From Candidatus Nanopelagicales bacterium (GTDB lineage: Bacteria > Actinomycetota > Actinomycetes > S36-B12 > UBA5976): 64,000 nucleotides of DNA. Every line of letters starts with the position of its first letter. Within the stretch, counting starts at the first letter, position 1. Location of the stretch: NCBI GenBank assembly GCA_044343935.1, contig JBIJDU010000003.1, forward strand, positions 5,365 through 69,364, in the 5' to 3' direction. The notes beneath the pieces were generated by a model. The model saw only the letters and a list, made by a program, of their open reading frames with translations. It did no database searches and was not told the origin of the DNA. Below, in pieces: positions 11,827 through 38,149 of this stretch. Position numbers and translations under genes: made by a program.

Positions 11827-11850
11827 TCCCCTACTTTCGCACAGGAAGGG

Positions 11851-15404: not shown

Positions 15405-15405
15405 C

Positions 15406-16617: not shown

Positions 16618-16721
16618 TTATTGACGGGAAAGTGTGAGAAAATCAGCCACATATTGCGCGTGGAGCAGAACTCACAGAACTTCCTAATTGAGTCATCTAT
16701 TCTCGCCTCAAGGAGAGTTAA

Positions 16722-18131
16722 GTGCGGATAAAAGGTCATCGGCCATCGTTGGTGCTGTTAAGCAGCATCAGCGCTGTTACCTTGGCCATTACTTTGATAT
16801 CTGGCTTGTTTGGTATTGCGCTTAGAACTGTTGCAGATGAAGTAAATACCACCGACATCTCAGCCCAACTTGGTGATCGACCTGCTATCCCGGCATCGCC
16901 AACCGGTCCGATTGATATTTTGATTATGGGAAGCGATACCAGGGCTGGTCAAGGCAGAAAGTACGGTCAACCTGGCTATTACACCTCAGCGCATTCTGAT
17001 ACTACGTTGCTTGCACATATATATGAGGATCGAAAACGAGTATTAGTGGTTAGCATTCCGCGCGATACCATCGTTCGAATTCCAGAATGCACTAATTCCG
17101 AAGGCAAGGTTTATCCGCCAATTACAACCAGATTCAATTACGCCTTCACTCAAGGTGGGCCTGGTTGCACCGTAAAAACAGTTGAGTCAATTACCGGTAT
17201 CACCATTGAGCATTTCGCGGTACTGGATTTCCGCGGCTTTAAGGCAGTTGTCGATGCGTTAGGTGGTGTTGAAGTATGTGTGCCAGAAGATGTAAATGAC
17301 AATAAGAGCAAGTTATTCATCGATGCCGGCTTGCAGACACTAAATGGAGAAGACTCGCTGGCTTACGTTAGAACCAGATACGGCTTAGGTGATGGCGGAG
17401 ATATTTCGCGAATTTCTAGACAGCAAGATTTTCTCAAGTCAATGGTCCGCAAAATTACTAGCTCGCAAGTGCTGCTTGACCCAATCCGATTATTCCGAAC
17501 CTTAAATGAAGTTGCTAAATCCTTAACAACCGATCCGGCGTTGGGATCTGTTGAAAAAATGACTGCGTTAGTTCGCAGCATCGCCGGAATTGATCCCAGC
17601 AAGATTAGATTTATGACCGCACCTATCTCAACAAATCCAAAAGATCGAAATACCGTGGTTTTTTCCAAGATTGAAGCGACCAAACTTTGGACAGCATTAG
17701 CCAATGATGAGGGTTATAACGAGCCAATTGAGTTAACTGAGTCTCAAATTCCTGATGTACCAGTAACTACTGTCTCAGTCACTGTGCTAAATGGCACCAG
17801 CATTCCGGGTGCCGCCAGTGAAGCGGCTAATTTGTTAGGTGATGAAGGTTTCAAGATTGTCGGAACTAGAAATGCCCCTGAACCGGTTTCGGAAAGTTAC
17901 ATCCGAGCTAGTGAAAATCAATTACCGCAGGCCCGAACATTAGCCAAAGCATTGGGCAACAACATTGAAATTCAAATTCAGGATTCCCGCAGTAATGACA
18001 TTAAGTTATTTATTGGGTCAAATAGAGTTAATGTGATTGGTTTTCCAAAAATTGAAGAAAAGCCAGCTACTTGGCAACAACCAAAGCCATCTGGTTCAGA
18101 TGAGAAAAGTCCTTGCCTAGTTAAGAATTAG
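16722..18131 (+). CDS. LytR-CpsA-Psr (LCP) family glycopolymer-peptidoglycan ligase
   Basis: GTG start with AAGGAG upstream. N-terminal TM anchor. LCP core ILIMGSDTR...SDTTLLAHI...VVSIPRDT. C-terminal LytR_C-like domain. Confidence 0.9.
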   Translation: MRIKGHRPSLVLLSSISAVTLAITLISGLFGIALRTVADEVNTTDISAQLGDRPAIPASPTGPIDILIMGSDTRAGQGRKYGQPGYYTSAHSDTTLLAHIYEDRKRVLVVSIPRDTIVRIPECTNSEGKVYPPITTRFNYAFTQGGPGCTVKTVESITGITIEHFAVLDFRGFKAVVDALGGVEVCVPEDVNDNKSKLFIDAGLQTLNGEDSLAYVRTRYGLGDGGDISRISRQQDFLKSMVRKITSSQVLLDPIRLFRTLNEVAKSLTTDPALGSVEKMTALVRSIAGIDPSKIRFMTAPISTNPKDRNTVVFSKIEATKLWTALANDEGYNEPIELTESQIPDVPVTTVSVTVLNGTSIPGAASEAANLLGDEGFKIVGTRNAPEPVSESYIRASENQLPQARTLAKALGNNIEIQIQDSRSNDIKLFIGSNRVNVIGFPKIEEKPATWQQPKPSGSDEKSPCLVKN

Positions 18132-20349: not shown

Positions 20350-20971
20350 TGGTTATCGCAGACTTGAGTTGAGTCGAATCAAAATTTGCAGCTGAGATCA
20401 CTTGGTCAAAACTTAAATCAGTAACCGCATGCTCCCAATTCTTTCGCGGCGAATTTTCCCAAAATAAAACTGGAATTTGATTGCTTTGCGCAGATTTAAC
20501 AATTCGAGCAAGTTGCGCTGCACGATCAGGAGCTAGTGGATTGCCAAGGTGGCGCCAAACTGAACTTACTTCGCCGGCGTTGGCAGCAATAACGACTACC
20601 TGCGGTTTAAATGGCAGCAATACATCAGCCACATCTTTATCGTGCGGCATCAGCGGCAAGACATAACAATCTTTTGCCAATTCATCAATCAGATCATCCC
20701 CTGCAACTGCGGCAACTCGAATTCCGAAATTAAACGGTGTTGCCCGGCGCACGCGTTGCAACATAGGCTCGCCTAGCTCAGTTGAGAATTGCCGATTATC
20801 CGATTCGTGCCGAAGTCGCCACAGCCGAACTAAGTTCTTCACTGCCACTAACGATCGCCTGGGATCCTTGGCGATTGCCAACAGCGCAGTGCCAACCAAA
20901 TAAGCACCAGAATTTTTCAGTTGTGCTAGCTCAGCTTCCAATTTCTGGACGCGATCGGTTAATTCATTCAT
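20342..20971 (-). CDS. hypothetical protein with N-terminal coiled coil, coupled to the two-module GT
   Basis: 209 aa. Heptad-like N-terminus (LTDRVQKLEAELAQLKN). It overlaps wecB by 4 nt upstream and the 742-aa GT by 8 nt downstream. No family recognised with confidence. Confidence 0.5.
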   Translation of the reverse strand: MNELTDRVQKLEAELAQLKNSGAYLVGTALLAIAKDPRRSLVAVKNLVRLWRLRHESDNRQFSTELGEPMLQRVRRATPFNFGIRVAAVAGDDLIDELAKDCYVLPLMPHDKDVADVLLPFKPQVVVIAANAGEVSSVWRHLGNPLAPDRAAQLARIVKSAQSNQIPVLFWENSPRKNWEHAVTDLSFDQVISAANFDSTQLKSAITND

Positions 20972-22062
20972 CTGCTACCTAGAAATTCAATAATTGCTGC
21001 AGCAATGCGCTCGCCCGCTTTGCCATCCCATAGCGGTGGCACTACATCTTTTGGTGCTGGCAATTCAGTCACGCGCTGCACCAAATTATCGACTGTTACC
21101 AATTGATTTGAACCATATGTAATAGTGATTGGACGCTCCGTATTGGGGCGCAATGTTAAACAAGGCACTTTAAGAATTGTGGTTTCTTCTTGCACGCCTC
21201 CAGAGTCAGTGACAACAAACTTTGCCCCTTTGACTAACGAGATGAAATCGATGTAATTAAGTGGCTCAATAACTTTGATTCCATCATATTCACCAAGGCC
21301 GGCGTTATACAGTGATGCTTTTCCGCGCGGATGCAGCGGCAGCACGATTTGGGTTTGTTTGGAAACTTCACCTAGTGCTGTGACAATCAATTTAGCAGTT
21401 GTAAGATCATCCACATTCCCAGGTCGATGCAAAGTGGCAACCGCATAATCACCAGTGATGCCGAGTTGATTGGTAATTTTTACCGAATCAAACTCTGCTA
21501 GATGAGATAACAACGTATCAATCATGGAATTACCTACAAAAACTATTTTTCGCTCGGCTAACCCTTCTCGCTTCAGATTGTCTTCTGCTTCTGGGCTGGT
21601 AATCAGTAATAAATCAGAAAGCTGATCAGTTAACTTTCGATTTATCTCTTCAGGCATAGACAAATCAAAACTTCGCAACCCCGCTTCAACGTGCGCAACT
21701 GGAATTTCTAATTTTGCTGCTACTAATGCGGCAGCAACCGTAGAATTCACATCGCCGTAAACCACAATCATTGCTGGCTTCACATCCGCGATTGCTTTTT
21801 CAAAGCCAACCATAATCGCGGCAGTTTGGCTGGCATGTGAACCAGAACCAACCCCAAGATTTAAATCAGGTGTTGGCAGATTTAATAATCTAAAAAACGA
21901 ATCACTTAGCGCATCGTCATAATGCTGGCCGGTATGAATCAACCGTTGCGGAATTCCTGCCTTGGCTAATGCCGCGATAACGGGGGCAGCCTTTGGGAAA
22001 TTCGGTCGAGCGCCAGTAACGTGGACAACATCGCCACTTCGTATTACTGCCTGCTGCGTCAC
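20968..22062 (-). CDS. wecB: UDP-N-acetylglucosamine 2-epimerase (non-hydrolysing)
   Basis: Motifs HTGQHYD, VYGDVNST, HVEAGLRS and DSGGVQEE. Confidence 0.92.
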   Translation of the reverse strand: MTQQAVIRSGDVVHVTGARPNFPKAAPVIAALAKAGIPQRLIHTGQHYDDALSDSFFRLLNLPTPDLNLGVGSGSHASQTAAIMVGFEKAIADVKPAMIVVYGDVNSTVAAALVAAKLEIPVAHVEAGLRSFDLSMPEEINRKLTDQLSDLLLITSPEAEDNLKREGLAERKIVFVGNSMIDTLLSHLAEFDSVKITNQLGITGDYAVATLHRPGNVDDLTTAKLIVTALGEVSKQTQIVLPLHPRGKASLYNAGLGEYDGIKVIEPLNYIDFISLVKGAKFVVTDSGGVQEETTILKVPCLTLRPNTERPITITYGSNQLVTVDNLVQRVTELPAPKDVVPPLWDGKAGERIAAAIIEFLGSR

Positions 22063-22112
22063 TGCGCTCTCCTAAGCGTGAGAAACTTGGCTCTAGCCGT
22101 GAGTATTCCACC

Positions 22113-23561
22113 ATGGCATGGGAAAGTAGGACAGCGTTGCGCTACTTAACTGGGTTGCGAGCCCTGCCATGGGCAATCAGCACCATATTGCTTCGGCTGC
22201 TGCGATCCCCACGCCTAACTCTAGAAGCCATATTGCGCAAGGCGGGCATAAATCTCCGGAACACCGCAAATCCAGCAAAATCAGGGGACTTTCCCAATCC
22301 AATCAGGCGCGGACCTGCGCATCGCAGCATTAATCCGCGACCAAACTCAGTGCTGCACTTTATTACCAATTGCTTGCCCTATACCCAAGCTGGCTACACC
22401 ATTCGAACTCATAACGTAATAGCTGCCCAACTAGCTGCTGGAATCTCAGCTAGCGCAGTTACCAGATATGGCTATCCAATCAGTATTGGCAATTTTAAAA
22501 CTGGCGTCAAAACTGAGTTACCAAGTTTTTCAGGCGATAGCAAGATTACTTACCACCATTTAATTCCAACCAAATTTGCCACAACAACTGAATTAGAAGT
22601 TGCAGCAGCAACAGCATCTAAACTAGTAGCAAAACTTCGCCCCAGCGTGCTTCATGCCGCAACCGATTTTATTAACGGTGAAATTGCAGCTGCCGTTGCA
22701 ACTGCCACAGATTTACCATTTGCTTATGAAGTACGCGGATTTTTAGAACAATCCTGGTTAACTAAATCAGCCGAAAACCGTGATGACTCTGCTTATTATC
22801 AAGAATTTCTGCGGCGCGAAACCGAAGTGATGCAACAAGCAGCAGCAATAACAACATTAAGCGAAACCATGAAAGCCGAAATCATAAGTCGCGGTGTGGC
22901 TGCTGCAAAAATCCACTTAGCACCAAATGCCGTATCAGATCAGTTGTTAAGTGAAGTTAAATCTGCAGCAGCGGCAAGAGCACAACTGCATTTGCCTGAA
23001 TTACCTACGTTTGGTATCGCCACCACGCTTTACCAATTTGAAAATGTGAGCCTTTTGATTGAATCACTTGAGCAACTTTGGCAAAGCGGCAAACAAGCAC
23101 AGTTGTTAATTGTGGGTGATGGACCCGAGTTAGCTGGCTTAACTGCCCGGGCAAAATCAAGCCCAGTTGCAGCACATATTCACCTGGTTGGCCGAAAACC
23201 ATTTGAGCAAACCATTACGCACTATCAAGCCATGGATGTGTTCTGTGTCCCCAGAACCCATTCGCTAGTGACGCAATTGGTAACTCCGCTTAAACCCATT
23301 GAAGCGATGGCGCTGGGTCGCCCGGTTATTGCCAGCAATTTGCCAGCGCTGGCTGAGTTAATCAAGCATGAGCAAACCGGGCTTTTAGTTCAGCCCGATT
23401 CCGCCACTGCGCTCACCGAAGCCCTTGGCCAACTTCTGTACGATTCAGGCTATCGCCACAATTTAGCTACCGCGGCGAAAGAATGGGTTGCTAACACTCG
23501 AACCTGGTCTCAGGTAGCGCAGACTTATCAACAGATTTACCAACAGCTAGGCAAGCGCTAA
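22113..23561 (+). CDS. glycosyltransferase family 4 with ~90-aa basic N-terminal extension
   Basis: GT-B fold signatures. C-terminal VFCVPRTHSLVTQLVTPLKPIEAMALGRPVIAS. Divergent from wecB. Confidence 0.8.
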   Translation: MAWESRTALRYLTGLRALPWAISTILLRLLRSPRLTLEAILRKAGINLRNTANPAKSGDFPNPIRRGPAHRSINPRPNSVLHFITNCLPYTQAGYTIRTHNVIAAQLAAGISASAVTRYGYPISIGNFKTGVKTELPSFSGDSKITYHHLIPTKFATTTELEVAAATASKLVAKLRPSVLHAATDFINGEIAAAVATATDLPFAYEVRGFLEQSWLTKSAENRDDSAYYQEFLRRETEVMQQAAAITTLSETMKAEIISRGVAAAKIHLAPNAVSDQLLSEVKSAAAARAQLHLPELPTFGIATTLYQFENVSLLIESLEQLWQSGKQAQLLIVGDGPELAGLTARAKSSPVAAHIHLVGRKPFEQTITHYQAMDVFCVPRTHSLVTQLVTPLKPIEAMALGRPVIASNLPALAELIKHEQTGLLVQPDSATALTEALGQLLYDSGYRHNLATAAKEWVANTRTWSQVAQTYQQIYQQLGKR

Positions 23562-23579
23562 CGCTTGCGCGGAGGGTTA

Positions 23580-24839
23580 ATGAAGACAGATCTCGCGGTA
23601 ATTGGATTGGGCTATGTCGGTTTGCCACTGGCTCAGGAAGCACTTCGCGCCGGGCTATCAGTTGTTGGTTACGACGTAAGTGATCGCGTAATAACTGGGC
23701 TGAACGCTGGTAAATCACATGTTGATGATTTGTCGGACACTGACATTCAAACCATGATCAAAAATGGATTTACCGCAAGCAAAGATGATCAAGTACTGGA
23801 AGCAGCTAGTGCCATTGTGATTTGTGTGCCAACACCACTTTCCGCCGATGGCGGACCTGATCTTTCTGCCGTGCTTGGTGCTACCGCAGCAGTTGCCAAG
23901 AATTTGAAAAAAGGTCAATTAATTGTTTTGGAGTCAACTACTTATCCAGGCACAACCGAAGAAGTAGTTAAGCCTATCTTGGAGGCTGGCGGCTTGGTTG
24001 CTGGCGAAGATTTTTATCTAGCATTTTCGCCAGAGCGAATTGACCCAGGTAATAAAAAATTTGGGATGCGCAACACGCCAAAAGTTGTTGGTGGTATTAA
24101 TCAAGTTAGCACTGACAAAGCGGTCGCGATGTATGCCAATTTTGTTGATACCGTGGTTCGTGCCAAAGGCGCTAAAGAAGCTGAAATGGCAAAATTGCTC
24201 GAAAACACTTATCGTCATATCAACATTGCGCTGGTGAATGAAATGGCAATGTTCTGCAATGACCTCGGAATTGATTTATGGGATGTAATCAGATGCGCCT
24301 CAACTAAGCCATTCGGTTTTCAAGCTTTTTATCCTGGCCCAGGTGTTGGCGGACACTGCATCCCAATTGATCCAAATTATTTATCGCATCAAGTTAAAAC
24401 GAATCTGGGCTATCCATTTAAGTTTGTTGAGTTGGCACAAGAGATTAATGCGGGTATGCCCAACTATGTGATTCGCCGCGTGCAAGATCAACTAAACACT
24501 GCTGGAAAAGCACTAAATGGAGCAACTGTGTTGCTGTTAGGTGTTACTTACAAACCAAACATTGCAGATCAGCGTGAATCCCCCGCAATTCCAATTGGGC
24601 TTGGCTTAATTGAAAAGGGTGCCAAGGTGATATTTCATGATCCCATGGTTGAGGTTTGGCGCCTAGCTGGCACTGAACTGCCACGAGTTGCAGATCTAAC
24701 TGCCGCACTTAAGCAAGCAGATATCACTGTGATGTTGCAAGACCATGCTAGCTATGACGCTGACCTATTAATTTCCAACTCGAATTTGTTGTTTGATACT
24801 CGCGGCAAATTAGATCATCCCGAGGTGGAGCGACTGTGA
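23580..24839 (+). CDS. UDP-N-acetylhexosamine 6-dehydrogenase (WecC/WbpA/TviB family)
   Basis: Start refined to ATG 23580, with GGAGGG upstream. Rossmann motif VIGLGYVGLPLA, LESTTYPGTTEE, and catalytic Cys GVGGHCIPIDP. The substrate (ManNAc versus GlcNAc) cannot be resolved from sequence alone. Confidence 0.85.
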   Translation: MKTDLAVIGLGYVGLPLAQEALRAGLSVVGYDVSDRVITGLNAGKSHVDDLSDTDIQTMIKNGFTASKDDQVLEAASAIVICVPTPLSADGGPDLSAVLGATAAVAKNLKKGQLIVLESTTYPGTTEEVVKPILEAGGLVAGEDFYLAFSPERIDPGNKKFGMRNTPKVVGGINQVSTDKAVAMYANFVDTVVRAKGAKEAEMAKLLENTYRHINIALVNEMAMFCNDLGIDLWDVIRCASTKPFGFQAFYPGPGVGGHCIPIDPNYLSHQVKTNLGYPFKFVELAQEINAGMPNYVIRRVQDQLNTAGKALNGATVLLLGVTYKPNIADQRESPAIPIGLGLIEKGAKVIFHDPMVEVWRLAGTELPRVADLTAALKQADITVMLQDHASYDADLLISNSNLLFDTRGKLDHPEVERL

Positions 24840-25675
24840 GTGAATTTCACCAGCTAAAACCAGTTGGTCAGAAGTTAAGTTTTGGCGCATACATAAAGGA
24901 CTTATGGAAGCGTAGATTTTTCATGATGTCATTTGCTCGGGCTCGTGTTGAAGGACAAAACTCCAGTGCCGCTTTGGGTCAACTTTGGTTGCTATTAACG
25001 CCGCTGTTAACCGCAGCAGTTTATTACCTTTTATTTGGTGTAATTCTTGGCGTCTCTCGTGGGATTGAAAACTTTATCGCATTTTTAGTTATTGGGGTAA
25101 TGATGTTTCGATTTACTTCCAATAGTGCAAACGCCGGTGCAATATCGATTATCTCAAACAAAGGATTAATCCGATCACTACATTTCCCCAGGGCGTTGCT
25201 ACCAATCTCAGCATCACTCCAGCAATTCCTGCAATTTCTACCATCGCTTATAGTGGTATTGATTGCCGTGATAGCAACTGGCGAACCAATTAGATTTACT
25301 TGGATATTGATAATTCCTATCATTCTGATTCAATTTGTTTTTAACACTGGAATTGCCTTGCTGCTTGCACGAGTTGTGAATAGGACCCGTGATTTAGCGA
25401 AGTTGAGTCCATTCTTAATTCGCATGTGGGGATATCTCAGTGGCATTTTCTTTAGTATTGAGTTATCCAAAGAGAGATTTCCAGAACTGATTGAACCTTT
25501 TTTGAGCTACAACCCTGCACATATTTTTATGCAGTTGACTCGAAGTATTTTCATTGAGTCGATTGATTCTTCAATGCAAGATTGGTTATGGGGAATTGGC
25601 TGGGCGATGGCGGTATTTTTGCTAGGTTTTTATTTCTTCTTCAAAGGTGAAGGTAAATATGGTCGAGACCAATAG
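24836..25675 (+). CDS. ABC-2 type polysaccharide/teichoic-acid export permease (Wzm/TagG-like)
   Basis: 279 aa with six hydrophobic segments. It overlaps the upstream dehydrogenase by 4 nt and is followed by the cognate ATPase. Confidence 0.88.
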   Translation: MSEFHQLKPVGQKLSFGAYIKDLWKRRFFMMSFARARVEGQNSSAALGQLWLLLTPLLTAAVYYLLFGVILGVSRGIENFIAFLVIGVMMFRFTSNSANAGAISIISNKGLIRSLHFPRALLPISASLQQFLQFLPSLIVVLIAVIATGEPIRFTWILIIPIILIQFVFNTGIALLLARVVNRTRDLAKLSPFLIRMWGYLSGIFFSIELSKERFPELIEPFLSYNPAHIFMQLTRSIFIESIDSSMQDWLWGIGWAMAVFLLGFYFFFKGEGKYGRDQ

Positions 25676-26420
25676 TCGAACCGTTGTTGTTGAAGACTTA
25701 CATGTTTATTATCGAATTCGAACTAAAGTGAAAAGCAAACAAATTGCGGTAAAACAGAATTTACTTGATAAAGCGCTGCGTCGAACTCGCAAAGTTCCCT
25801 TGAAGGAAGTTCATGCCCTGAAGGGCGTTAGTTTCACAACTCATCAAGGTGAAGCGGTTGCCATCATTGGTCGTAATGGCGCTGGCAAAAGCACGCTGCT
25901 GCGCGCAATATCAGGGTTGATTCCGGCCCGAACTGGCTCAATTCTCACCTCATCGCAGCCCTCATTGCTAGGTGTTAATGCAGCACTGATGAATCATTTG
26001 TCGGGCCGACGAAATATCGAACTTGGTGGGTTGGCGTTAGGCATGACACCAGCTGAAGTTGAAGCGAACATGGATGCCATCATTGAATTTTCCGGCTTGG
26101 GTGAATTTATTGATCTGCCACTTAGCACCTATTCCGCTGGCATGGGCGCCAGATTGCGATTTGCGATTGCCTCTTCAGTGCCACAAGAAATTCTGATGAT
26201 TGATGAAGCACTGGCAACTGGTGATGTTAACTTCAAGAAGCGATCGCAAGAGCGGATTTCCGAGCTTAAAGCAAAAGCGGGCACGGTGTTTTTGGTTAGC
26301 CATTCGCATTCCGTCATTCGCGAGACCTGTAACCGCGCCATCTGGCTTGATAAAGGCAAAATGGTGATGGATGGTCCAATGGAGGAAGTTCTCAGCGCCT
26401 ACGAGCAAGCGACTACTTAA
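25659..26420 (+). CDS. polysaccharide export ABC ATPase (Wzt/TagH-like, no C-terminal carbohydrate-binding domain)
   Basis: ATG at 25659. Walker A GRNGAGKST, signature YSAGMGARL and Walker B ILMIDEALATGD. The protein ends shortly after the NBD. Confidence 0.9.
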   Translation: MVETNSRTVVVEDLHVYYRIRTKVKSKQIAVKQNLLDKALRRTRKVPLKEVHALKGVSFTTHQGEAVAIIGRNGAGKSTLLRAISGLIPARTGSILTSSQPSLLGVNAALMNHLSGRRNIELGGLALGMTPAEVEANMDAIIEFSGLGEFIDLPLSTYSAGMGARLRFAIASSVPQEILMIDEALATGDVNFKKRSQERISELKAKAGTVFLVSHSHSVIRETCNRAIWLDKGKMVMDGPMEEVLSAYEQATT

Positions 26421-28500: not shown

Positions 28501-29625
28501 ATGAGCACTGATAGCAGAAGGGATGACGTGTCGGCCAAACCGAAGATTGTGCTTCATATCGGAACTATGAAGTCTGGCACCACCTATCTGCAGCATGGAC
28601 TGCTGAGCCAGTTGTCGCAGCTAGCCGAGAATGGTTGGCTTTATCCAATGCAATTTGCGCCAGCACGAGGTGCGATAAATCATGAGCGAGCAATTTATGG
28701 ACTAGTGGGAAACCATATTCCTTGGGTTGATAGCGCAACAGCGCAACGGATGGCACCGCAATGGCAGAAATTGATCACCGAGATTTCAACCACTAATAGC
28801 AATGTGCTGTTATCTGCTGAAGCAGTTGCGGTAATGATGGAGGATGGAATTGAGAAGTTGTTATCGGCGCTTCCTGTTCGAGATATTGAAGTGGTGCTTA
28901 CCGCTCGAGATTTAGCTCGAGTGCTTCCCTCGTCGTGGCAGCAGAGTGTTCGAAATGGCAGACCATATGGTTATGAAGAATATTTTGACCGCATCAAACG
29001 TGCCAAAGAATTACCAATCAACGAATCAGTTGGTAGCAATTTCTGGCGAAGTTACCAACTGAGTGATGTAGTTTTAAGATGGCAGAAATTTATTCCGTTA
29101 GCGAACATCTCAATAGTCACAGTGCCGACAAAGTTAAGTTCAGATTCGCTTTGGGCTAGATTTGTGAACGCAGTGAATCTGCCATTGGAGACTAGTGAAC
29201 CAATATTTGATGATAAAAAAGCTCATACTTCAATCACTTGGCCTGAAGCGGAGGTCTTGACTCAGCTGAACCAAAAGTGGGCAAAACAAGGTAAGCCTAA
29301 GAAAGCACAAGATCAATTGCGTCGCCGAATTGTGCAGGAGGGGTTTCAGCATCGAGCTAATCGCGGCCAGGCAATTGCGCTCACCGCACCTTGGCTTTCG
29401 CTAGCCCAGCAATGGGCGGCGCAAGATGTTGAACAATTGCTGCAAATTGGGGTGCGAATTCAAGGCAATATCAACGAACTTCTCACAGCAGCGGAGTTAG
29501 CCCCAGCTCAGCCGTGTACTGCGGCTGAAATTGCCGAGGCGAGCGAAGTTGCTGCTCGATTCCATGATCGAATGCGACTGCAGGCAATAACTACCCTTTT
29601 TGGCATCTCTCGAAAACGCAGTTAA
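28501..29625 (+). CDS. predicted PAPS-dependent sulfotransferase-fold protein
   Basis: IVLHIGTMKSGTTYLQ resembles the 5'-phosphosulfate-binding loop (K-[ST]-G-T-T). LTARDLARVLPSSWQQS resembles the 3'-phosphate-binding R...S motif. It is the first gene of a + strand run with ugd and cysD. Confidence 0.6.
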   Translation: MSTDSRRDDVSAKPKIVLHIGTMKSGTTYLQHGLLSQLSQLAENGWLYPMQFAPARGAINHERAIYGLVGNHIPWVDSATAQRMAPQWQKLITEISTTNSNVLLSAEAVAVMMEDGIEKLLSALPVRDIEVVLTARDLARVLPSSWQQSVRNGRPYGYEEYFDRIKRAKELPINESVGSNFWRSYQLSDVVLRWQKFIPLANISIVTVPTKLSSDSLWARFVNAVNLPLETSEPIFDDKKAHTSITWPEAEVLTQLNQKWAKQGKPKKAQDQLRRRIVQEGFQHRANRGQAIALTAPWLSLAQQWAAQDVEQLLQIGVRIQGNINELLTAAELAPAQPCTAAEIAEASEVAARFHDRMRLQAITTLFGISRKRS

Positions 29626-29658
29626 GGTAGATTTGGCCGCATCAACCGCTAGGACTTA

Positions 29659-30972
29659 ATGACTACAGGCATGCAGGTATCCGTTGTTGGATGCGGCTAT
29701 TTAGGCGCGGTATTAGCTGCTGTGCTAGCCGAACAAGGCAATCAAGTGATTGGGCTTGATGTCGATGACGCCAAAGTCTCCCAACTAAATTCTGGTATTC
29801 CGCCATTTTTCGAACCAGAGTTTGAATCTGTTCTGCAGCGTTCATTAGCGAGCGGCAAATTAAGCTTCACAACTGATCCAGCCAGAATAGCTAGTAGTGA
29901 GATTGTGTTCATTTGTGTTGGCACCCCACAGCTTGACGGTGGTGCCGCTGATTTATCGCAACTATGGCGAGCTGCTGATGCTATTGCACCACATTTATCA
30001 CCAACTGCAATTGTGGTTGGTCGCTCAACTGTGCCAGTTGGTACAGCTGCAAAATTAGAACAGCGGCTTAATCAGAAATCTGGTCATAGTTTCCAATTAG
30101 CTTGGAATCCAGAATTTCTGCGCGAAGGTCATGCTATAGCTGACACTCGATTGCCAGATCGAATTGTGATCGGATCAACAAACGCTGATGCAATTACAAA
30201 GATTAAAGATATTTATCAACCACAGTTAGTCAATCAAGTTCCGTTCTTGGTTATGGATGTTTCAACTGCCGAACTAGTTAAAGTATCCGCAAATGCATTT
30301 TTGGCAACAAAAATTTCATTTATTAATGCAATTTCAGAAGTTGCCGATATTGCTGGGGCTGACATTGTTGCGTTGGCTGAAGCAATTGGTCTTGATCCAA
30401 GAATTGGAAACAAGTTTCTAGCCGCTGGCGTTGGCTTTGGTGGTGGCTGCTTACCAAAAGACATTCGCGCCTTTATCGCAAGCAGTCAAGAGATTGGTGC
30501 TGGTGAAGCGATGCAATTCTTAGTTGAAGTTGACCGGATCAATCTGCGCCAGCGCGATCGAGTAGTTAAGTTGGCAACATCCAAACTAGGTAATGTAGCT
30601 GGCAAGAAGGTCGTGGTGCTCGGCGCTGCCTTTAAGCCCAATAGCGATGACGTCCGCGACTCCCCAGCGCTAGATGTGGCAAATGCCATGCATCAACTTG
30701 GCGCGACGGTATTTGTCCACGACCCAAAGGCCATCGATAACGCTCGAGCGCGCTTTCCGGAGCTCAATTATGAGCGTGACCTCACCGAAATTTTTAAGAA
30801 TGCTGAATTAGTATTGCACTTAACCGAATGGCAGCAGTATCGAGAGTTAGATCCGGCAAAGTTGCTATCCAAGGTGGCTAATCCAGTAATTATTGATGGC
30901 CGAAACGTGCTGGATTTTGCAAAGTGGCGAGCTGCTGGCTGGCAGATTGCTGGAATGGGCAAACGGACTTAA
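29659..30972 (+). CDS. ugd: UDP-glucose 6-dehydrogenase
   Basis: [13 protein letters not shown]ossmann motif. Catalytic Cys [19 protein letters not shown]. Confidence 0.92.
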
Positions 30973-31889
30973 TGACTAGTGAACTAATTAGTACTGACCA
31001 GGTGTTAGACGCACTTGAGTCAGAGGCAATTGGTATTTTGCGTGAAACTGCTGGAGCATTCAAGAATCCAGTTGTGCTCTATTCGGTTGGTAAAGATTCC
31101 AGCGTTTTGCTTGAACTTGTTAAAAAAGCATTCGCGCCAGCGCCAATTCCATTCACTTTTCTTCATGTCGATACCACATTTGATCCCCATGAAATGATCG
31201 AATTTAGAGACGCAATCGCAAAGGAACTAGGACTTAATTTAGTCGTGCATGTAAACCCTGAGGGCGCAAACGGGGCAGTTACGCCGTGGACCCATGGCGT
31301 TCAGGAATACACCAGAATTATGAAAACAATTGCGTTACGACAGGCCTTAGATGCGGGCGGCTATGACGCAGCTATCGGAGGGGCAAGGCGTGACGAAGAG
31401 CGTTCTCGCTCAAAAGAGCGAGTGTTTAGTTTGCGCGAACCCGGCCACCGTTGGGAACCAAGAAATCAACGCCCGGAGATGTGGCGAACGCGCAATACGT
31501 CTTTAACTGAAGGTCAAACTATGCGGGTTTTCCCATTGAGTAATTGGACTGAAGTAGACATCTGGCGTTACATCAGGCGCGAAAAAATCAAACTAGTTCC
31601 ACTTTATTTCGCTAAACCCAGGCGAAGTATTATCCGTGATGGTCAGGTGATTGTTTTGGATGACGATCGCATGCCCCTTCTTCCCGGTGAAGTTCCACAA
31701 GATCGGATCGTGAGATTTAGATCGTTAGGATGCTATCCAGTTACCGCGGCTATTGAATCGACCGCCGCTACCATAGATGAGCTCGTCGCCGAAATGGAAG
31801 CTGCCCGCATTAGTGAAAGAGCAGGGAGACTTATCGATGGCGATCGAGAGGATTCGATGGAAGCAAAAAAGACCGAAGGTTATTTCTAA
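30972..31889 (+). CDS. cysD: sulfate adenylyltransferase subunit 2 (copy 1)
   Basis: ATG at 30972 overlaps the ugd stop (TAATG). PP-loop [19 protein letters not shown], and the C-terminus KKTEGYF. Confidence 0.93.
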
Positions 31890-31901
31890 TCCATTACAAA
31901 T

Positions 31902-32756
31902 TTAGGGATTACAACTTTCGCATCGCGCTGGCTCTAATACCGTCGCCACAACTCTTTTCATCACCATGAAATCGCATGAAACGCAGCCAAGTAGTTCTCG
32001 GTGCACAGCATCAGGATTTAATCGATCGCAATCTCTGCAACGTAATCCTCGATCATATATCTCTTTTCCCCAACCTGGACAATCGCACTTGGGGCAGAGA
32101 GCGCAAATTCGAGCTATCAGATTATTACCCAAGCTTGCAAGATTTTTCTGTCGTGATGGTGATGAGTTAGCGCGAAAATCTGACTCTATAACTACTTGTT
32201 TATCGTTAGACTTATCAGCAATCTGAGCAATTGCAAAACTAAGTTTTGCTATCTCATCAATTCCCTTTACTGAAAATTTTTTGCCGCTTGATTTATACCC
32301 ACTAACAATCAACTTATGTTTTGGAAAGTCTGCCCGAACTAAGAATTCACTCAAATCAGTAGTTGGGTCGGCTGTTATTCTTGCAGCCACTATTTCGGTA
32401 AATCGTTTCGAGACTTCAATTACTAAGTCTCTCTCACCATCACAAAAGACCATTGTCTCGATATCAGAGTTAATAAACGGCAAAACCGGATCTGCTCCGA
32501 TAGATCCTTCTGAACCAATTCCAAAACTTAAACCAAGTTCTTCCATACCCCATTTTGCCTTGATTAAAGCTGTATCAAACGGAGAATTTAATCGAGCAAT
32601 CTCGCCACTGAAAGTGCCCAGGGTGTCGGTATCCACGTTAGCATTAACAATTTTCGCTGATAGTTTTTCTAAAAAAAATGGCGCAATGATTAAATGCTTT
32701 TGGTGTTTTGTTGCAAAGGCAATTTCTTTTCCGTAATAAGGGTGGGGTTTTTGCAC
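31902..32756 (-). CDS. uncharacterised protein with C-terminal double zinc ribbon (resembles what I recall as DUF6671; unverified)
   Basis: 284 aa. N-terminal motifs ATKHQKH, DTDTLGTFSGE and GSEGSIGADPVLPF. The C-terminus has CALCPKCDC...CRDC...CVSC...CESC. Lower-GC coding sequence. Confidence 0.7.
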   Translation of the reverse strand: MQKPHPYYGKEIAFATKHQKHLIIAPFFLEKLSAKIVNANVDTDTLGTFSGEIARLNSPFDTALIKAKWGMEELGLSFGIGSEGSIGADPVLPFINSDIETMVFCDGERDLVIEVSKRFTEIVAARITADPTTDLSEFLVRADFPKHKLIVSGYKSSGKKFSVKGIDEIAKLSFAIAQIADKSNDKQVVIESDFRANSSPSRQKNLASLGNNLIARICALCPKCDCPGWGKEIYDRGLRCRDCDRLNPDAVHRELLGCVSCDFMVMKRVVATVLEPARCESCNP

Positions 32757-32767
32757 GATTTTGAAAG

Positions 32768-33130
32768 TTATTGGAAAATCGAAATTAGTGAGCCAATTGA
32801 CTCATTAGACTCCGATGGGTGCCTAAATTTTCTGGTTGCGTTTATCTTATAGGTGTTTTTTCGTCCCTTTTTTACAACTCGAATATACCCAGCCTCAGCT
32901 AGATCAGAGATGATGGCTTGAGCGCTACGCTCCGTAATTCCTACCGTATTTGCTATGTCCCTAATCAGACTGTCTGGATATCGAGACACATGAACAAGGA
33001 CATGACCATGATTGGAAAGAAATGTCCACTGTTTTCGATTTATTGCAGTCTGGGCACTGGTCGCCTTCTTTACCTTGCTCTGCATAGCCAAATAATACCT
33101 GAAATCTTCCTCAGGTATAGATCCTGACAT
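32768..33130 (-). CDS. small winged-helix DNA-binding protein (ArsR/MarR-like)
   Basis: 120 aa. HTH-like IRDIANTVGITERSAQAIISDLAEAGYI, followed by a wing VVKKGRKNTYKIN. Confidence 0.72.
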   Translation of the reverse strand: MSGSIPEEDFRYYLAMQSKVKKATSAQTAINRKQWTFLSNHGHVLVHVSRYPDSLIRDIANTVGITERSAQAIISDLAEAGYIRVVKKGRKNTYKINATRKFRHPSESNESIGSLISIFQ

Positions 33131-33143
33131 CGAATTATTTGTT

Positions 33144-33171
33144 TTGACAAGAAAATTTTTTCCTGTATTGT
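33144..33171 (+). promoter_or_regulatory. sigma70-like promoter giving a leaderless or near-leaderless IDH-like mRNA
   Basis: TTGACA (33144-33149), a 16-nt spacer, then TATTGT (33166-33171). The first ATG is at 33179, 7 nt after the -10 element, and no SD is visible. The whole divergent gap is 48 nt. Confidence 0.4.
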
Positions 33172-33178
33172 ACTTCCT

Positions 33179-34624
33179 ATGATGATGATAAATCCCGTTA
33201 AGACCGTCACGGTAATCCCAGGTGATGGTATTGGTCCAGAGGTCATTAGTTCAGTAAAAGAACTCATTTCGGCAAGTGGTGCGAGGGTGGAATGGGAAGA
33301 GCAAATCGCTGGTGAGCATGCCTTTCAGCGGGGAATTGCAACCGGCGTACCGATTGAAACCATAGAATCTATTGAGAAGAATCGGGTAGTTCTCAAAGGA
33401 CCATTGGCTACCCCAATCGGCCATGGTCAAAAAAGCGCGAATGTTACGTTGCGTAAATTTTTTGAAACTTTTGCCAATATCCGACCGGCCAGAGAGCTCC
33501 CAGGGGTGCCTAGTGCATTCGCGGGAAGAGGCATTGACTTTGTGGTGGTCCGCGAAAATATCGAGGATCTTTATGCTGGCGTAGAACACTTTCAGACGCC
33601 AAATGTAACGCAATGTTTGAAACTAATTTCAAGGCTTGGCTGTCAACGAATCAGTGATGCGGCCTTTGCTTTTGCGGTTGCTGAGCATAGAAGGCATGTC
33701 ACAGTTGCCACTAAAGCTAACATAATGAAACTGACCGAAGGGATGTTCAAAAGCGAATTTGAGGCTATAGCTGCTCGTTATCCTGAAATTACAACATCTC
33801 ACATGCTTATAGATAACTGTGCACATCAAATGGTGATTAAGCCAGAACAATTCGACGTAATAGTTACTTCCAACATGAATGGTGACATAATTAGCGATCT
33901 TGCCAGTGGCCTAGTAGGTGGACTTGGATTCGCACCTTCAGCAAATATTGGGTACGACATTGCCATGTTTGAACCTGTTCATGGTACGGCACCAGATATT
34001 GCAGGTTTGAACAAAGCAAATCCAACCGCTGCTATTTTGTCGGCAACAATGTTACTTCGTCACATCAATGAGTTTGATTCAGCGAATAAAATTGAACAGG
34101 CTTTATTTGCTACTCTCGATCAAAATATATTTACATCTGATGTCGCGAAGGATAATGGATTAAGCACGAGCAAATTCACCGAAGAGATCATTTCACGATT
34201 GGGATCTAAATCCAGCATGCAATCAAGAGCACACAAGTCTTTTGATATGACCAAAATTATGCCTGAAAACAGTGACCTAAAGGCAGGTTCAAGAGAGAAA
34301 GTTGGCGTTGATATCTTTATTGAAACTAACGATAGCCCTGAAAATCTGGCTTGGAAAATTGAGATGATCATCAAGGAAACTCCTTATACTCTCAAAATGA
34401 TTTCTAATCGTGGAACTCAAGTTTGGCCCGCTACTGGAGGATCAGCTACTTTGGTTGATCACTTCAGATGTAGATTTGTTATTTCGGATCGCAGCAGATG
34501 GAATGACCGCTCTATCTTGGAATTAGTTTCAATTATTTCAAACCATTTTAGGTGGATGCACATTGAAAAATTAGAGCAAATCAATGGCTCTCCTGGGTTC
34601 TCTAAAGCCCACGGTGAAAATTGA
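33179..34624 (+). CDS. NAD-type isocitrate dehydrogenase family enzyme with ~145-aa extra C-terminal domain
   Basis: VIPGDGIGPEV and LKGPLATPIGHGQKSANVTLRKFFETFANIRP (the IDH3-like substrate loop), plus NMNGDIISDLASGLVGGLG. Residues from about 335 to 481 have no counterpart in ~335-aa IDH/IPMDH enzymes. Confidence 0.85.
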   Translation: MMMINPVKTVTVIPGDGIGPEVISSVKELISASGARVEWEEQIAGEHAFQRGIATGVPIETIESIEKNRVVLKGPLATPIGHGQKSANVTLRKFFETFANIRPARELPGVPSAFAGRGIDFVVVRENIEDLYAGVEHFQTPNVTQCLKLISRLGCQRISDAAFAFAVAEHRRHVTVATKANIMKLTEGMFKSEFEAIAARYPEITTSHMLIDNCAHQMVIKPEQFDVIVTSNMNGDIISDLASGLVGGLGFAPSANIGYDIAMFEPVHGTAPDIAGLNKANPTAAILSATMLLRHINEFDSANKIEQALFATLDQNIFTSDVAKDNGLSTSKFTEEIISRLGSKSSMQSRAHKSFDMTKIMPENSDLKAGSREKVGVDIFIETNDSPENLAWKIEMIIKETPYTLKMISNRGTQVWPATGGSATLVDHFRCRFVISDRSRWNDRSILELVSIISNHFRWMHIEKLEQINGSPGFSKAHGEN

Positions 34625-34888
34625 TCTAATCAGTAAATTCTTCTCATCTGGATTCATCTTTACCTGGATTCGGACATAAAATAGCCACGCGGAGCAAAAA
34701 ATGTCGGCCAAGGCATTTATGTTCAGATTCACCACATAGGATTCGTCGGGTACTAATGAAAGGTAATCCTGAACTAGATTAACTAGGCATAAAGAGCAAC
34801 CGTAAGTCGATGCCAATAATCGCTAAACTGAAGGTGTTAATCTGATTGCCATAGCCAATCAAACGTGAAGAGTAGGTCAGATACGGTT

Positions 34889-35806
34889 ATGTCCATGTCA
34901 ACAATCAGTACCCATCAAGTGCTTGATGCTTTAGAGGCCGAAGCGATAGGAATTCTTCGTGAGACTGCCGGATCATTCAAAAATCCAGTCTTGATGTATT
35001 CGATTGGCAAAGATTCAAGCGTGCTGTTGGAGCTTGCTCGCAAGGCATTTTTTCCGGCTCCAATCCCATTTACATTCCTTCATATTGACACTACTTTTAA
35101 ATTTCGAGAGATGATTGAGTTTCGTGAGGCTCGCGCTAAAGAGTTTGGTTTAAACCTAATTGTTCACACCAATCCCGAAGGAGCCAACGGCGAAGTTACA
35201 GCTTGGACTCATGGTGCACAGGAATACACTCGAATCATGAAAACTGTTGCTCTCCGCCAAGCATTAGATGCGGGAGGATATGACGCCGCGATTGGCGGTG
35301 CTCGTCGCGACGAAGAGCGTTCTCGCTCCAAAGAGCGGGTATTTAGTTTACGAGAGCAAGGGCATCGCTGGGAGCCAAGAAATCAGCGACCAGAAATGTG
35401 GCGATCTAGGAATACTGCGTTAAGCGAGGGTCAATCAATGCGTGTATTTCCATTGAGTAATTGGACCGAAATTGATGTCTGGCGTTATATCAAACGTGAA
35501 AATATTGAAATTGTGCCACTTTATTACGCTAAGCCAAGAAGAAGCGTGATAAGAGATGGTCAGATTATTGTGCTAGACGATGATCGTATGCCACTTCTGC
35601 CAGGTGAGGTGCCGCAAAACCGGATGGTGAGATTTCGATCGCTTGGTTGCTATCCAGTGACTGCTGCAATTGAATCAACTGCAACAACAATGGATGAATT
35701 GGTCGCCGAAATGGAAGCAATAAAAGTAAGTGAACGCGCTGGTCGATTAATTGATGGTGATCGCGAAGCATCCATGGAAGCCAAAAAGACGGAAGGGTAT
35801 TTCTGA
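34889..35806 (+). CDS. cysD: sulfate adenylyltransferase subunit 2 (copy 2)
   Basis: ATG 34889 was chosen because [11 protein letters not shown] aligns with [11 protein letters not shown] of copy 1. [11 protein letters not shown] and GGARRDEE motifs. The stop overlaps the cysNC start (TGATG). Confidence 0.92.
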
Positions 35807-37644
35807 TGTCCACTTCAACAACACCATTATTGCGCGTTGTGACCTGTGGTTCAGTTGATGACGGCAAGAGCACATTGATCGGTCGGTTATTGGTAGAAAC
35901 TGATTCCGTTCCACTTGATGAAGTGGAACGCGCTCGCACATATCGCAGAGCTGGGTCAATTATTCCAATAGGTGAAGTAGATTATTCATTGCTGACTGAT
36001 GGTTTAGAGGCTGAGCGGGAACAAGGCATAACTATCGATGTGGCATACCGGCACTTACTACTGCCATCTGGCCGAAGAGTCATTCTGGCTGATGGCCCAG
36101 GCCATGAGCAATACACGAGAAATATGGCGGTTGCTGCATCGGACGCTGATGTTGCACTGCTGCTCGTCGATGCAACTAAAGGTGTTCGGGATCAAACTAT
36201 GCGCCACCTAACGGTTTGCGCACTTATGGGTGTGGGAACTGTAATTGCCGTTATCAATAAATTGGATGCTAAGGATTTTTCTGAGCAAATTGCAGCTGAC
36301 ATTGCTACAAGATTAACTGAGGCGGCAAATCGACTTGGGGTAAAAAACTTAATGATGATTCCCGTTAGTGCACTTTTGGGTGATAACGTAATTACGGAAA
36401 GTAAAAATACTCCTTGGTATAACGGACCAACGGTGTTAGGTGCATTGCAGCAATGGCAACCTGGCCAATCGCTGGCTGATCAATCGCTAAGGTTACCGGT
36501 ACAGACAATCTTGCGAGCAGACAACTGGCGCGGTTATGGCGGTACTTTAGTTAGTGGCACTTTACGTTTGGGTGATAGTTTTGTAGTTGCGCAAACAGGT
36601 AAGCAAGCAAAAGTTGCTGAAATGTATGTAAATGGCAAAGTAGCAAGTCAAGCACTACCTGGTGAGGCAGTTGCAATCAAACCAGATGTTGAAATAGACA
36701 TCTCTAGAGGCGATGTAATTTCTGACAAATTACAAGACTTACAACCAGCCGATAGGTTTTCTGCTGATTTGGTTTGGATTGGTGAAGAGCCGTTAGCCCA
36801 TGGCCGGTCATATGCCTTGATCTCAGGTCCAGCGTCTGTTAATGCCACTGTCACCACTATTCGCCACAAACTCGATGTTAATACTGGCCATGAAGATGCT
36901 GCCCGCGTACTAAATCTTAATGAAATTGGTCGAGTTACTATCGCAACTGAAAAACCGATTCCGTTAGATCTTTACAGTGAGATGCGAGATACCGGTGGTT
37001 TCTTATTAGTTGATCGAGTTACTAAACACACAGTTGCTGCTGGCATGGTGCACCATGTGCTGCGTCGCTCATTTAACGTGGTGCCACATGAGTTTGAGAT
37101 CAATAAAGAAGCTCGCGGTCGATTAAAAGCTCAAACACCAAAAGTAATTTGGCTAACTGGTCTGCCAGGCTCGGGTAAATCTACGCTAGCAAATGAAGTA
37201 GAGCGCCGACTTTATGCAGCTGGCGTCCACACTTATCTGCTCGATGGCGATAACGTGCGAACTGGCTTAAACAAAGACCTAGGTTTCACTGCAACTGATC
37301 GAGCTGAGAATGTTCGTCGAGTCGGCGAAGTTGCTAAGTTGATGGTGGATGCTGGTTTGATAGTTCTAGTATCGCTAGTTTCACCGTTTAGAAGCGACCG
37401 AGATGCAGTGAAAGAGTTATTCCCAACCGGCGAGTTCATTGAGGTATTTGTTAATACGCCAGTTGAGATTTGTGCGCAGCGAGATCCAAAAGGACTATAC
37501 GCAAAAGCGCAAGCTGGTAATCTGCCAAATATGACTGGCATGGGACAAAATTACGAACCACCACTTAAGGCGGATTTAGTAATTGATGGCACCGCAGACT
37601 TGGCGCAAAGCGCAGCTTTAGTTATCTCAAAAATTATGGGTTAA
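35806..37644 (+). CDS. cysNC: bifunctional sulfate adenylyltransferase subunit 1 / adenylylsulfate kinase
   Basis: GTPase motifs [18 protein letters not shown] and NKLD. C-terminal APS kinase [13 protein letters not shown] and LDGDNVR. Confidence 0.95.
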
Positions 37645-38149
37645 GTTGTTGCTTTAGTTTTTGCTGCAACTCATTATTCTTAGTGATCACTAAGTCAGAT
37701 AACTCTGCTCGGTAGTTATCCAACTTTGCCTGCAATGCCTTATCGGTGCTAGCTAAAATTCGAAGTGCTAATAGGCCAGCATTCTTGGCACCGTTAATTG
37801 CAACAGTGGCAACTGGAATGCCTGCTGGCATCTGCACCACGCTTAGTAATGAATCCAGACCATCAAGATGGGATAGCGCTACTGGCACACCAATTACCGG
37901 CAAACTTGTCGCTGATGCAATCATTCCGGGTAGATGTGCCGCACCGCCAGCACCAGCAATAATTACTTGAATGCCAGATTCAGCCGCACTAGCCGCAAAT
38001 TCCAACATCTGAGTCGGCGTTCGATGGGCTGAGATAACAGCAACATCCGAAGTAACACCAAATTCCTGCAGCGTTGTAACAGCGGGCTCCATGGTGGGCC
38101 AATCGGAATCTGAGCCCATCACCACGGCAACTTTAGCTGCAGTCATCAT
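37634..38149 (-). CDS. purE: N5-carboxyaminoimidazole ribonucleotide mutase
   Basis: Motifs [14 protein letters not shown] and AGGAAHLPG. Convergent 11-nt overlap with cysNC. Confidence 0.95.

Follow-up and report, generated by a model that had tools for sequence, protein, structure and literature searches.

A lineage-specific three-gene insertion between two xenologous cysD genes at the edge of a wall-glycan cluster in Nanopelagicales

Introduction

Rhizobial NodP and NodQ are second copies of CysD and CysN that supply activated sulfate for the sulfation of Nod factors. NodQ and CysN are treated in PMC1780047, and the CysD-CysNC complex of Mycobacterium tuberculosis pairs the CysD small subunit with a CysN GTPase fused to adenosine 5'-phosphosulfate (APS) kinase (PMC4373884). 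A large replacement island for surface-structure genes, GI1, has been described in Planktophila and the Nanopelagicales (PMC12817590). Here, we analyze a locus of Candidatus Nanopelagicales (assembly GCA_044343935.1, contig JBIJDU010000003.1, positions 5,365 to 69,364; this 64-kb stretch of DNA is called the window, and all positions without a prefix are its coordinates) in which two full-length cysD genes bracket an insert at 31890-34888. The gene order is ugd-cysD1, DUF6671-wHTH-IDH, cysD2-cysNC, with the inserted trio encoding a DUF6671 protein, a winged helix-turn-helix (wHTH) regulator and an NADP-isocitrate dehydrogenase (IDH). Comparison loci and proteins are designated by L- and P-numbers. 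We find that the trio was gained in a single lineage, probably by recombination anchored in the cysD region.

Like rhizobial NodP/NodQ, the extra CysD-type gene of the window is linked to glycan-modification genes. Unlike that pair, the window duplicates CysD alone and has one CysNC, and its extra copy is closely related (84% amino acid identity), a xenologue from within the family rather than part of an old dedicated paralogue pair. The locus shares with M. tuberculosis a CysD small subunit and a CysN GTPase fused to APS kinase, and differs from it in having a second, orphan CysD coupled to ugd, 3 kb from cysNC.

Results

Two non-sister cysD genes

Both cysD genes are intact, 918 nucleotides (nt) and 305 codons long, and align without indels, at the positions given in a first-pass annotation of this DNA that was made from the sequence alone. 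Its hand count of about 43 substitutions, or roughly 85% identity, was close to the actual 48 differences in 305 residues (84.3% identity). The genes differ at 251 nucleotides (72.7% identity), 176 of them at third codon positions, in agreement with the many synonymous differences it had noted. Against the TIGR02039 and NF009214 cut-offs of 396.6 and 413 bits, cysD1 scores 438.8 and 426.0 bits and cysD2 scores 449.6 and 445.5 bits. What we take to be the CysD family motifs, a PP-loop (SxGKDS) and GGARRDEE(R/K)SR, are intact in both proteins, the PP-loop reading YSVGKDSS in CysD1 and YSIGKDSS in CysD2. The start of cysD1 overlaps the ugd stop by 1 nt and cysD2 overlaps the cysNC start by 1 nt, so copy 1 is indeed an orphan coupled to ugd and only copy 2 leads into cysNC, as had been noted. 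The 3' neighbor of cysD1 is the convergent DUF6671 gene, and adjacency to CysN is found for cysD2, not for cysD1. Both CysD proteins would presumably work with the single CysN domain of CysNC.

CysD2 is 90-94% identical in amino acid sequence to the single CysD of the related loci L002-L005, while for CysD1 the identity is 85-86% to the single CysD proteins of relatives and 89% to the L083 protein. In a neighbor-joining tree (297 columns, 500 bootstraps, supports counted as bipartitions), the family forms a clade at 100%, cysD1 falls with its sister-species counterpart and the L083 gene in an A clade at 99%, and cysD2 groups with L002, L003, L005 and P0125 at 81%. None of the 500 bootstraps pairs the two copies as sisters. 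The saturation of synonymous sites between them (proportion of synonymous differences, pS, 0.82) extends to all comparisons between cysD types (pS 0.71-0.84), and no gene-conversion tract was found between cysD1 and cysD2, which share no identical stretch longer than 20 nt, a length not above chance expectation. Because of this saturation, the absence of sister pairings and the lack of a conversion tract, cysD1 and cysD2 are old xenologues and not the in-paralogues of a recent tandem duplication, which bears out the earlier reading of them as old paralogues or xenologues.

Distribution of the two-copy arrangement

An independent metagenome contig from the window species (L093) is 99-100% identical to the window and spans both junctions. 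The same order is found in a sister species, in L174, L175, L176, an 83.7-kb contig carrying P0123, and L001/L094, the last of which ends inside IDH. Window positions 21902-42756 align with L174 over 20.8 kb without a gap at 86.8% identity, intergenic regions and the 264-nt spacer upstream of cysD2 included. A chimeric join or collapsed repeat is conceivable in principle, as 918-bp homologous genes bracket the region and such repeats can mislead assemblers. However, the copies are only 73% identical, too different for assemblers to confuse, the same order recurs in independent assemblies from two species (L093 in one; L174, L175, L176 and the 83.7-kb contig in the other), and the sister species aligns gap-free despite 13% nucleotide divergence, making an assembly artefact a negligible prospect.

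Five related Nanopelagicales species have one cysD, and in all five ugd-cysD-cysNC is contiguous, which answers in the affirmative the synteny question raised by the first-pass annotation. These single-copy loci (L002, L003, L004, L005 with L083/L084, and L086-L088) are colinear with the window at 21-31.9 kb and 34.9-45.8 kb, and neither the trio nor the 264-nt spacer has left a trace in any single-copy relative examined. The two-copy order is confined to the window species (L093) and the sister species, where it is seen in several independent assemblies. Trees of flanking proteins group the window and sister species together with L004 next to them, ((window, sister), L004), at 100%, L002 with L003 at 100% and L083 with L005 at 100%. 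The two-copy clade is thus nested among single-copy species, which requires one gain as opposed to at least four losses. The three-gene insertion is therefore genuine and lineage-specific and, being shared by the window and sister species, predates their split.

Recombination at cysD

Exchange of cysD alleles can be seen directly within another species of the family. L083 and L005, from the same species, are 98-99% identical at the nucleotide level over 14 kb except for one sharply bounded 2.4-kb tract at 67-80% (L083:2500-4900, with cysD at L083:3099-4016). This tract runs from ~600 nt before the end of ugd through the whole of cysD to ~850 nt into cysNC, and L083 carries the A type of cysD where L005 carries the B type. 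It is a homologous-recombination import from a donor ~25-30% diverged, replacing the resident cysD. Since the A type of L083 stands in the standard ugd-cysD-cysNC order, it is an ordinary allele elsewhere that was moved by homologous recombination, which is strong evidence against an origin of cysD1 as a duplicate that diverged locally.

The tract also bears on the idea that the two-copy state is ancestral to the family and that recombination between cysD1 and cysD2 removed the insert from each single-copy relative, with a chimeric single gene as the product. A deletion of this kind, between direct repeats, is easy in mechanistic terms, and the predicted single genes, cysD1-like at the 5' end and cysD2-like at the 3' end, weakly match the N-terminal residues. 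However, deletion between cysD1 and cysD2 cannot account for the extension of the L083 tract into ugd and cysNC, the flank tree would need four or more independent losses in place of one gain, and the relatives examined retain nothing of the trio or spacer. We regard an ancestral two-copy state as very improbable.

The evidence for recombination in the window itself is phylogenetic incongruence. While ugd has its nearest relatives in the sister species and L004 over its full length, and so is native-like up to its 3' end, site patterns supporting the sisterhood of the window and L004, present left of cysD1 and right of cysNC (311:185 sites), are lost across cysD1 and cysD2-cysNC (244:261 sites; Fisher p = 6e-6). 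The switch lies near 37.6-37.9 kb, at cysNC/purE. In the cysNC tree, the window groups with L002/L003 at 87% bootstrap support, in conflict with both flanks (L004, 100%). Together, the loss of signal and the cysNC grouping indicate that the cysD-cysNC segment has been inherited non-vertically in either the window clade or L004. cysD2 looks orthologous to the gene of relatives, yet cysD2-cysNC conflicts with the species tree, and either copy may have been the resident one.

Selection on the insert and on both cysD copies

Between the window and sister species, synonymous divergence (dS) is 0.44-0.65 in the flanks, and the values for individual genes, with ratios of nonsynonymous to synonymous divergence (dN/dS), are given in Table 1. 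Both cysD copies and the three insert genes are intact in the two species, and all are under purifying selection. With the lowest dN/dS, cysD1 is under the strongest constraint of all genes in the region. Intact genes and low dN/dS together indicate that both cysD copies have been kept functional.

These values weigh on the possibility that the arrangement arose in situ, through tandem duplication of cysD, fast divergence of copy 1 and later illegitimate insertion of the trio, possibly copied from the same genome. Such an origin would be compatible with the lack of any mobile-element signature or detectable breakpoint, with the closest relatives of the trio being Nanopelagicaceae and its third-position composition being host-like, and with the fast evolution of DUF6671 (dN/dS 0.21). 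Against it, cysD1 is now the most constrained gene here (dN/dS 0.011) and not a relaxed duplicate, the two copies never pair as sisters in the bootstraps, and cysD1 groups at 99% with the L083 allele, which arrived together with the 3' end of ugd and the 5' end of cysNC in ordinary order. We consider an in-situ origin unlikely.

Composition and source of the insert

The insert has a G+C content (GC) of 41.4%, compared to a window mean of 46.3% (standard deviation 1.4, 3-kb windows), making it the lowest-GC 3-kb window; 0.6% of windows are equal or lower. It is also the top tetranucleotide outlier of the window (z ~4.1), and only one of the 56 open reading frames (ORFs) has a lower GC than its three genes. 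The direction of the anomaly is as the first-pass annotation described it, while its size (30-42 vs about 50 percent) had been overstated. The deficit lies at first codon positions (GC1), with 45.5-49.8% compared to 57.2 +/- 3.9, and third-position GC (GC3) is ordinary for IDH (36.7) and wHTH (38.8) relative to a mean of 38.5. The composition anomaly is thus real but modest, and it fits either an old acquisition in which synonymous sites have come to equilibrium or a drift of the proteins towards AT-rich codons.

The closest homologues of the DUF6671 protein outside the clade, at 49-51% identity, are from Planktophila/Nanopelagicaceae, and the wHTH protein is 59-61% identical to the DUF6671-paired regulators of Planktophila-type loci. 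The insert IDH sits on a long branch, with a best match of 68% outside the clade, and IDHs labeled Nanopelagicales, 59-60% identical to it, fall in another clade. With the nearest wHTH and DUF6671 homologues in Nanopelagicaceae and host-like third-position GC, the source of the insert would not have been a distant organism. The earlier interpretation of the insert, which included capture of a foreign cysD-containing fragment, is partly supported: the copies are xenologous and the insertion is lineage-specific, with no distant source.

No integrase, recombinase or transposase was found among the three insert genes in Pfam, NCBIfam and PADLOC scans, and there are no flanking repeats around the insert besides the cysD copies, in keeping with the earlier impression. 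The single tRNA of the window is at 3278-3359 and so not at the insert. Of the usual marks of a mobile element or genomic island, the insert therefore lacks the integrase and the tRNA or short repeats and has the atypical composition. Two other candidate identities were rejected: membership in a defense system, for which PADLOC gave weak matches only that were judged not meaningful, and phage origin, as no viral contig with DUF6671 was found, while an unrelated viral contig carries a cysD with 61% identity.

The wHTH-DUF6671 module and its neighbors

The insert genes were recognized in the first-pass annotation as a double zinc-ribbon protein, a wHTH protein and an IDH-like enzyme, and these assignments hold. 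The first matches PF20376 (DUF6671) at 100.8 bits against 23.8 required, a family of 2058 representative clusters for which a literature search found no paper mentioning it. Its C-terminal part has four CxxC pairs, corresponding to two zinc ribbons, and its N-terminal part is an alpha/beta domain. In the AlphaFold2 (AF2) model (predicted local distance difference test, pLDDT, 94.5), this domain tentatively resembles the Maf/inosine triphosphatase (ITPase, HAM1) fold, with top Foldseek matches to Maf/HAM1 at E ~1e-2 and probability 0.99-1.0. The wHTH protein reaches 21.3 bits with MarR_2, below the gathering score of 27, so the resemblance is to winged-helix proteins only; its homologues in L089 and L105 give weak MarR/MarR_2 matches. 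The IDH matches NF006673 at 541.9 bits (cut-off 509), PF00180 (Iso_dh) at E 1e-105 and PF18324 (Isocitrate_DH_C_bact) at E 6e-27.

The same genes recur together elsewhere. In Planktophila-type genomes, the wHTH-DUF6671 pair has the order and orientation seen in the window and is always divergent from a gene for an SbtA-like (Sbt_1) bicarbonate transporter (L105:6692-8860, near gyrB-gyrA; L173:5657-7858; L179, L180, L181). L091 has Sbt_1 facing DUF6671-IDH-wHTH, L089/L090/L111 have IDH-wHTH-DUF6671, and L119, L126, L131, L132 and L169 have wHTH divergent from IDH-DUF6671, with the same wHTH/IDH layout as the window. From these arrangements, wHTH-DUF6671, with or without IDH, is a conserved and recognizable module of low-GC freshwater Actinobacteria and not random cargo.

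An orphan cysD, with no cysN nearby, adjoins the DUF6671/IDH module in several unrelated lineages, which makes doubtful the earlier statement that the three genes are unrelated to sulfur metabolism. L006:302-4803 has IDH-wHTH-IDH next to an orphan cysD; orphan cysD-MT-MT lies beside IDH-wHTH-DUF6671 in L089:3366-8737, L090 and L111:5-4834; L158:5149-6923 has a LysR gene beside a DabB-DabA-cysD-DUF6671 operon; L172:6808-8213 has cysD-DUF6671; and in L168:5948-7140 a 107-residue C-terminal remnant of cysD lies immediately upstream of DUF6671. Of 56 metagenomic DUF6671 loci that lie outside the window clade and have 2 kb or more of flank, four have a cysD within 4 kb and none has a cysN. The module-linked orphan CysDs fall into two or more clades, all separate from CysD1. 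The two tandem IDHs that flank the wHTH gene in L006:302-3805, on an actinobacterial contig of 64% GC, are each 59% identical to the window IDH.

This recurrence raises the question of whether cysD1, DUF6671, wHTH and IDH form a functional unit in which cysD1 is kept as the dedicated partner of DUF6671 instead of an extra subunit for the synthesis of 3'-phosphoadenosine 5'-phosphosulfate (PAPS), a proposal about maintenance that is compatible with the origin favored below. It draws on the orphan cysD genes of unrelated CysD clades beside the module (L006, L089/L090/L111, L158, L172 and the L168 remnant), on the presence of cysD in 4/56 and of cysN in 0/56 loci, and on cysD1 having the lowest dN/dS of the region. 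However, cysD1 falls within the canonical cysD clade of its family and outside the orphan clades, and its A-type counterpart in L083 is part of a standard ugd-cysD-cysNC operon. In the window, cysD1 and DUF6671 are convergent and the translational coupling of cysD1 is to ugd. In addition, cysD is absent from the vicinity of most wHTH-DUF6671 pairs in Nanopelagicaceae. A functional unit including cysD1 is therefore doubtful.

P0419, a 1029-residue protein from a representative library, is a fusion of DabA, an inorganic-carbon pump subunit, to a DUF6671 domain. The fusion and the Sbt_1 neighborhood tie DUF6671 to bicarbonate/CO2 uptake genes. With the Sbt_1 neighbors, the DabB-DabA-cysD-DUF6671 operon and the DabA-DUF6671 fusion as its basis, a speculative proposal is that wHTH-DUF6671 with IDH and orphan CysD is a conserved module for inorganic-carbon handling, with a canonical cysD allele captured as cysD1 and kept as its adenylyltransferase; we give this only a small chance of being right.

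Junctions and regulatory features

The features of the locus are collected in Table 1. The left junction is 12 nt long, as first described, and a terminator scan found no terminator-like hairpin in it. The wHTH homologue in the sister species is called at 105 amino acids, and the true start of the window gene is probably internal, giving ~105 amino acids. A promoter-like site, TTGACA-16-TATTGT, lies at 33144-33171 in the wHTH-IDH intergenic region (a consensus match only), and wHTH may control both of the divergent promoters, that of IDH and its own with DUF6671.

The spacer at the right junction is 68% identical to that of the sister species and best conserved in its last ~60 nt. Its mismatches fall evenly over the three codon phases (29/27/28), and comparison of the two species revealed no conserved ORF and no codon periodicity, ruling out a ugd remnant or hidden gene; nor is it similar to the 3' end of ugd that precedes cysD in relatives. 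No Rfam match was obtained at a permissive threshold anywhere in the region, the spacer included. As a result of the arrangement, cysD2-cysNC now lies downstream of IDH and the spacer, and cysD1 is still translationally coupled to ugd. An exact 14-nt repeat, GGACTTAATGACTA, covers the start codons of ugd and cysD1 (29652-29665 and 30965-30978), where ~0.14 matches would be expected by chance in the 8.7-kb region.

Table 1. Features of the cysD locus in window coordinates, with divergence between the window and sister species
Feature	Position	Strand	Basis	dS	dN/dS
374-residue protein of the glycan cluster	28501..29625	+	no Pfam family; kept in all relatives		
ugd (UDP-glucose/GDP-mannose dehydrogenase family), native left flank	29659..30972	+	Pfam		
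cysD1, A-type sulfate adenylyltransferase small subunit, orphan without adjacent cysN	30972..31889	+	NCBIfam CysD	0.63	0.011
Junction J1, 12 nt between convergent stops of cysD1 and DUF6671	31890..31901	.	sequence		
DUF6671 protein gene	31902..32756	-	PF20376, E 1e-28	0.79	0.21
MarR-like wHTH regulator, 120 amino acids, co-directional with DUF6671	32768..33130	-	sub-gathering MarR_2/HTH matches	1.07	0.042
Divergent wHTH-IDH intergenic region, 48 nt, presumed operator region	33131..33178	.	consensus scan		
NADP-IDH, 480-residue type, bacterial C-terminal domain	33179..34624	+	NF006673, Pfam	0.79	0.063
Junction J2, 264-nt non-coding spacer upstream of cysD2	34625..34888	.	sequence comparison		
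cysD2, B-type copy, like the single cysD of most relatives	34889..35806	+	NCBIfam CysD	0.54	0.039
cysNC, CysN GTPase fused to APS kinase, sole CysN partner in the locus	35806..37644	+	NF004035, 742.9 bits	0.61	0.020
purE, right of cysNC	37634-38149				

The adjoining glycan cluster

The window at 10.5-31 kb is a wall-glycopolymer cluster with ugd-cysD-cysNC at its edge. Positions 10536-26420 encode a PGI-like protein, phosphomannomutase, nucleoside triphosphate (NTP)-transferase, SpoIID, a LytR-CpsA-Psr (LCP) ligase, glycosyltransferases, UDP-GlcNAc 2-epimerase and an ABC-2 exporter; one of the two UDP-sugar dehydrogenases of the cluster also lies within this part. A 374-residue protein upstream of ugd is present in the glycan cluster of every relative. 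It has no match in Pfam (E up to 10), NCBIfam or the PDB by sequence and profile searches, and its single-sequence AF2 model is unusable (pLDDT 37). It carries two motifs, GTMKSGTTY and RDLARVLPSS, that are similar to sulfotransferase 5'-PSB and 3'-PB loops, and our guess is that it could be a sulfotransferase consuming PAPS. If right, this would explain the presence of cysD-cysNC in a glycan cluster. Nanopelagicales isolates are reported to be without complete assimilatory sulfate reduction (PMC12817590), a gap that fits a role in sulfation, and cysD-cysNC most likely supplies PAPS for that of the glycan.

Discussion

We consider it probable that the locus arose by homology-anchored insertion of xenologous DNA from the same family at a recombination hot spot next to the wall-glycan cluster, prior to the separation of the window and sister species. 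The ancestral state would have been a single ugd-cysD-cysNC operon at the edge of that cluster. In the common ancestor of the two species, DNA from another lineage of the family would have integrated into the operon, with cysD, possibly together with neighboring ugd or cysNC, as the homologous anchor, and the opposite end would have been closed either through illegitimate recombination or through one crossover of a circularised fragment. The donor is assumed to have carried the module next to a cysD. The outcome would be two full-length, non-sister cysD genes around DUF6671-wHTH-IDH, too diverged from one another (73% nucleotide identity, longest identical run 20 nt) for the insert to be recombined out again. 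The anchored mechanism and the nature of the donor are the parts of this scheme that we infer.

Three versions of the scheme are conceivable, all of which call for an unsampled donor with the module adjoining a cysD. cysD1 and the trio may have arrived together, anchored in ugd or in the 5' end of cysD; the trio may have come with cysD2-cysNC, anchored in cysNC; or a circular fragment may have entered through one crossover inside cysD.

Several observations weigh against a homology-anchored gain of this kind. No donor with the module beside a family-type cysD was found among ~180 loci, including those around the best-matching IDH and DUF6671 homologues, and the trio may instead be an intragenomic copy or translocation, second copies of the module genes having been sought within the window, where there are none. 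The GC3 of IDH and wHTH equals that of the host, and their low GC1 could reflect faster protein evolution under AT-biased mutation. Informative sites compared with B-type relatives and the A-type L083 gene revealed no chimeric breakpoint or clear switch point within either cysD. Over the first 60 nt, cysD1 has the majority base of relatives at 13 sites and cysD2 at eight, but this apparently native 5' end of cysD1 rests on ~15 variable codons in a region that is variable in all relatives, and the N-terminal residues H9 and S29 of cysD2 are unique to it and not A-type. Finally, synonymous saturation between all cysD types means that dS gives no relative timing.

The first-pass annotation had also proposed insertion by homologous recombination through cysD. 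Exchange at the locus is borne out by L083 and L005, whereas a breakpoint or reciprocal chimera within either window gene is not seen. It had named uniform composition, sister copies and misassembly as findings that would count against its reading; the composition is non-uniform, the copies are not sister leaves and there is no misassembly.

The locus offers a dated case of gene gain without mobile-element machinery in a streamlined and very abundant freshwater actinobacterium, with the outcome that a metabolic and regulatory module was added and two long-lived functional xenologues of one enzyme subunit were established. The swap of cysD alleles 25-30% apart at the nucleotide level between L083 and L005 bears on microdiversity in the Nanopelagicales. 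The insertion itself may prove less valuable than the DUF6671 module with its recurrent orphan CysD, as neighbors such as a MarR-like regulator, IDH, bicarbonate/CO2 uptake and orphan CysD make the function of the family experimentally approachable.

Two kinds of known systems come closest to the event. As in GI1 (PMC12817590), which was compared by its description only, the window locus borders glycosyltransferases, an LCP ligase, an ABC exporter and sugar-nucleotide enzymes, and replacement by a divergent tract occurs within a species (L083 vs L005). Unlike in GI1, the glycosyltransferase block of the window is colinear in all relatives and the variable unit is the cysD-cysNC edge; moreover, the window clade shows addition of a second cysD and three metabolic or regulatory genes instead of like-for-like replacement. 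With homology-facilitated illegitimate recombination (PMC3240628) and Campbell-type integration, the locus shares DNA added beside a shared gene, a homologous gene at the border of the insert, and the absence of integrase, transposase and att-like repeats. It differs from both in that the event predates a species split, synonymous sites are saturated and no joint or crossover was located. The insertion is thus a known kind of event, a recombination-driven gain at a surface-glycan locus, and not a new kind of element.

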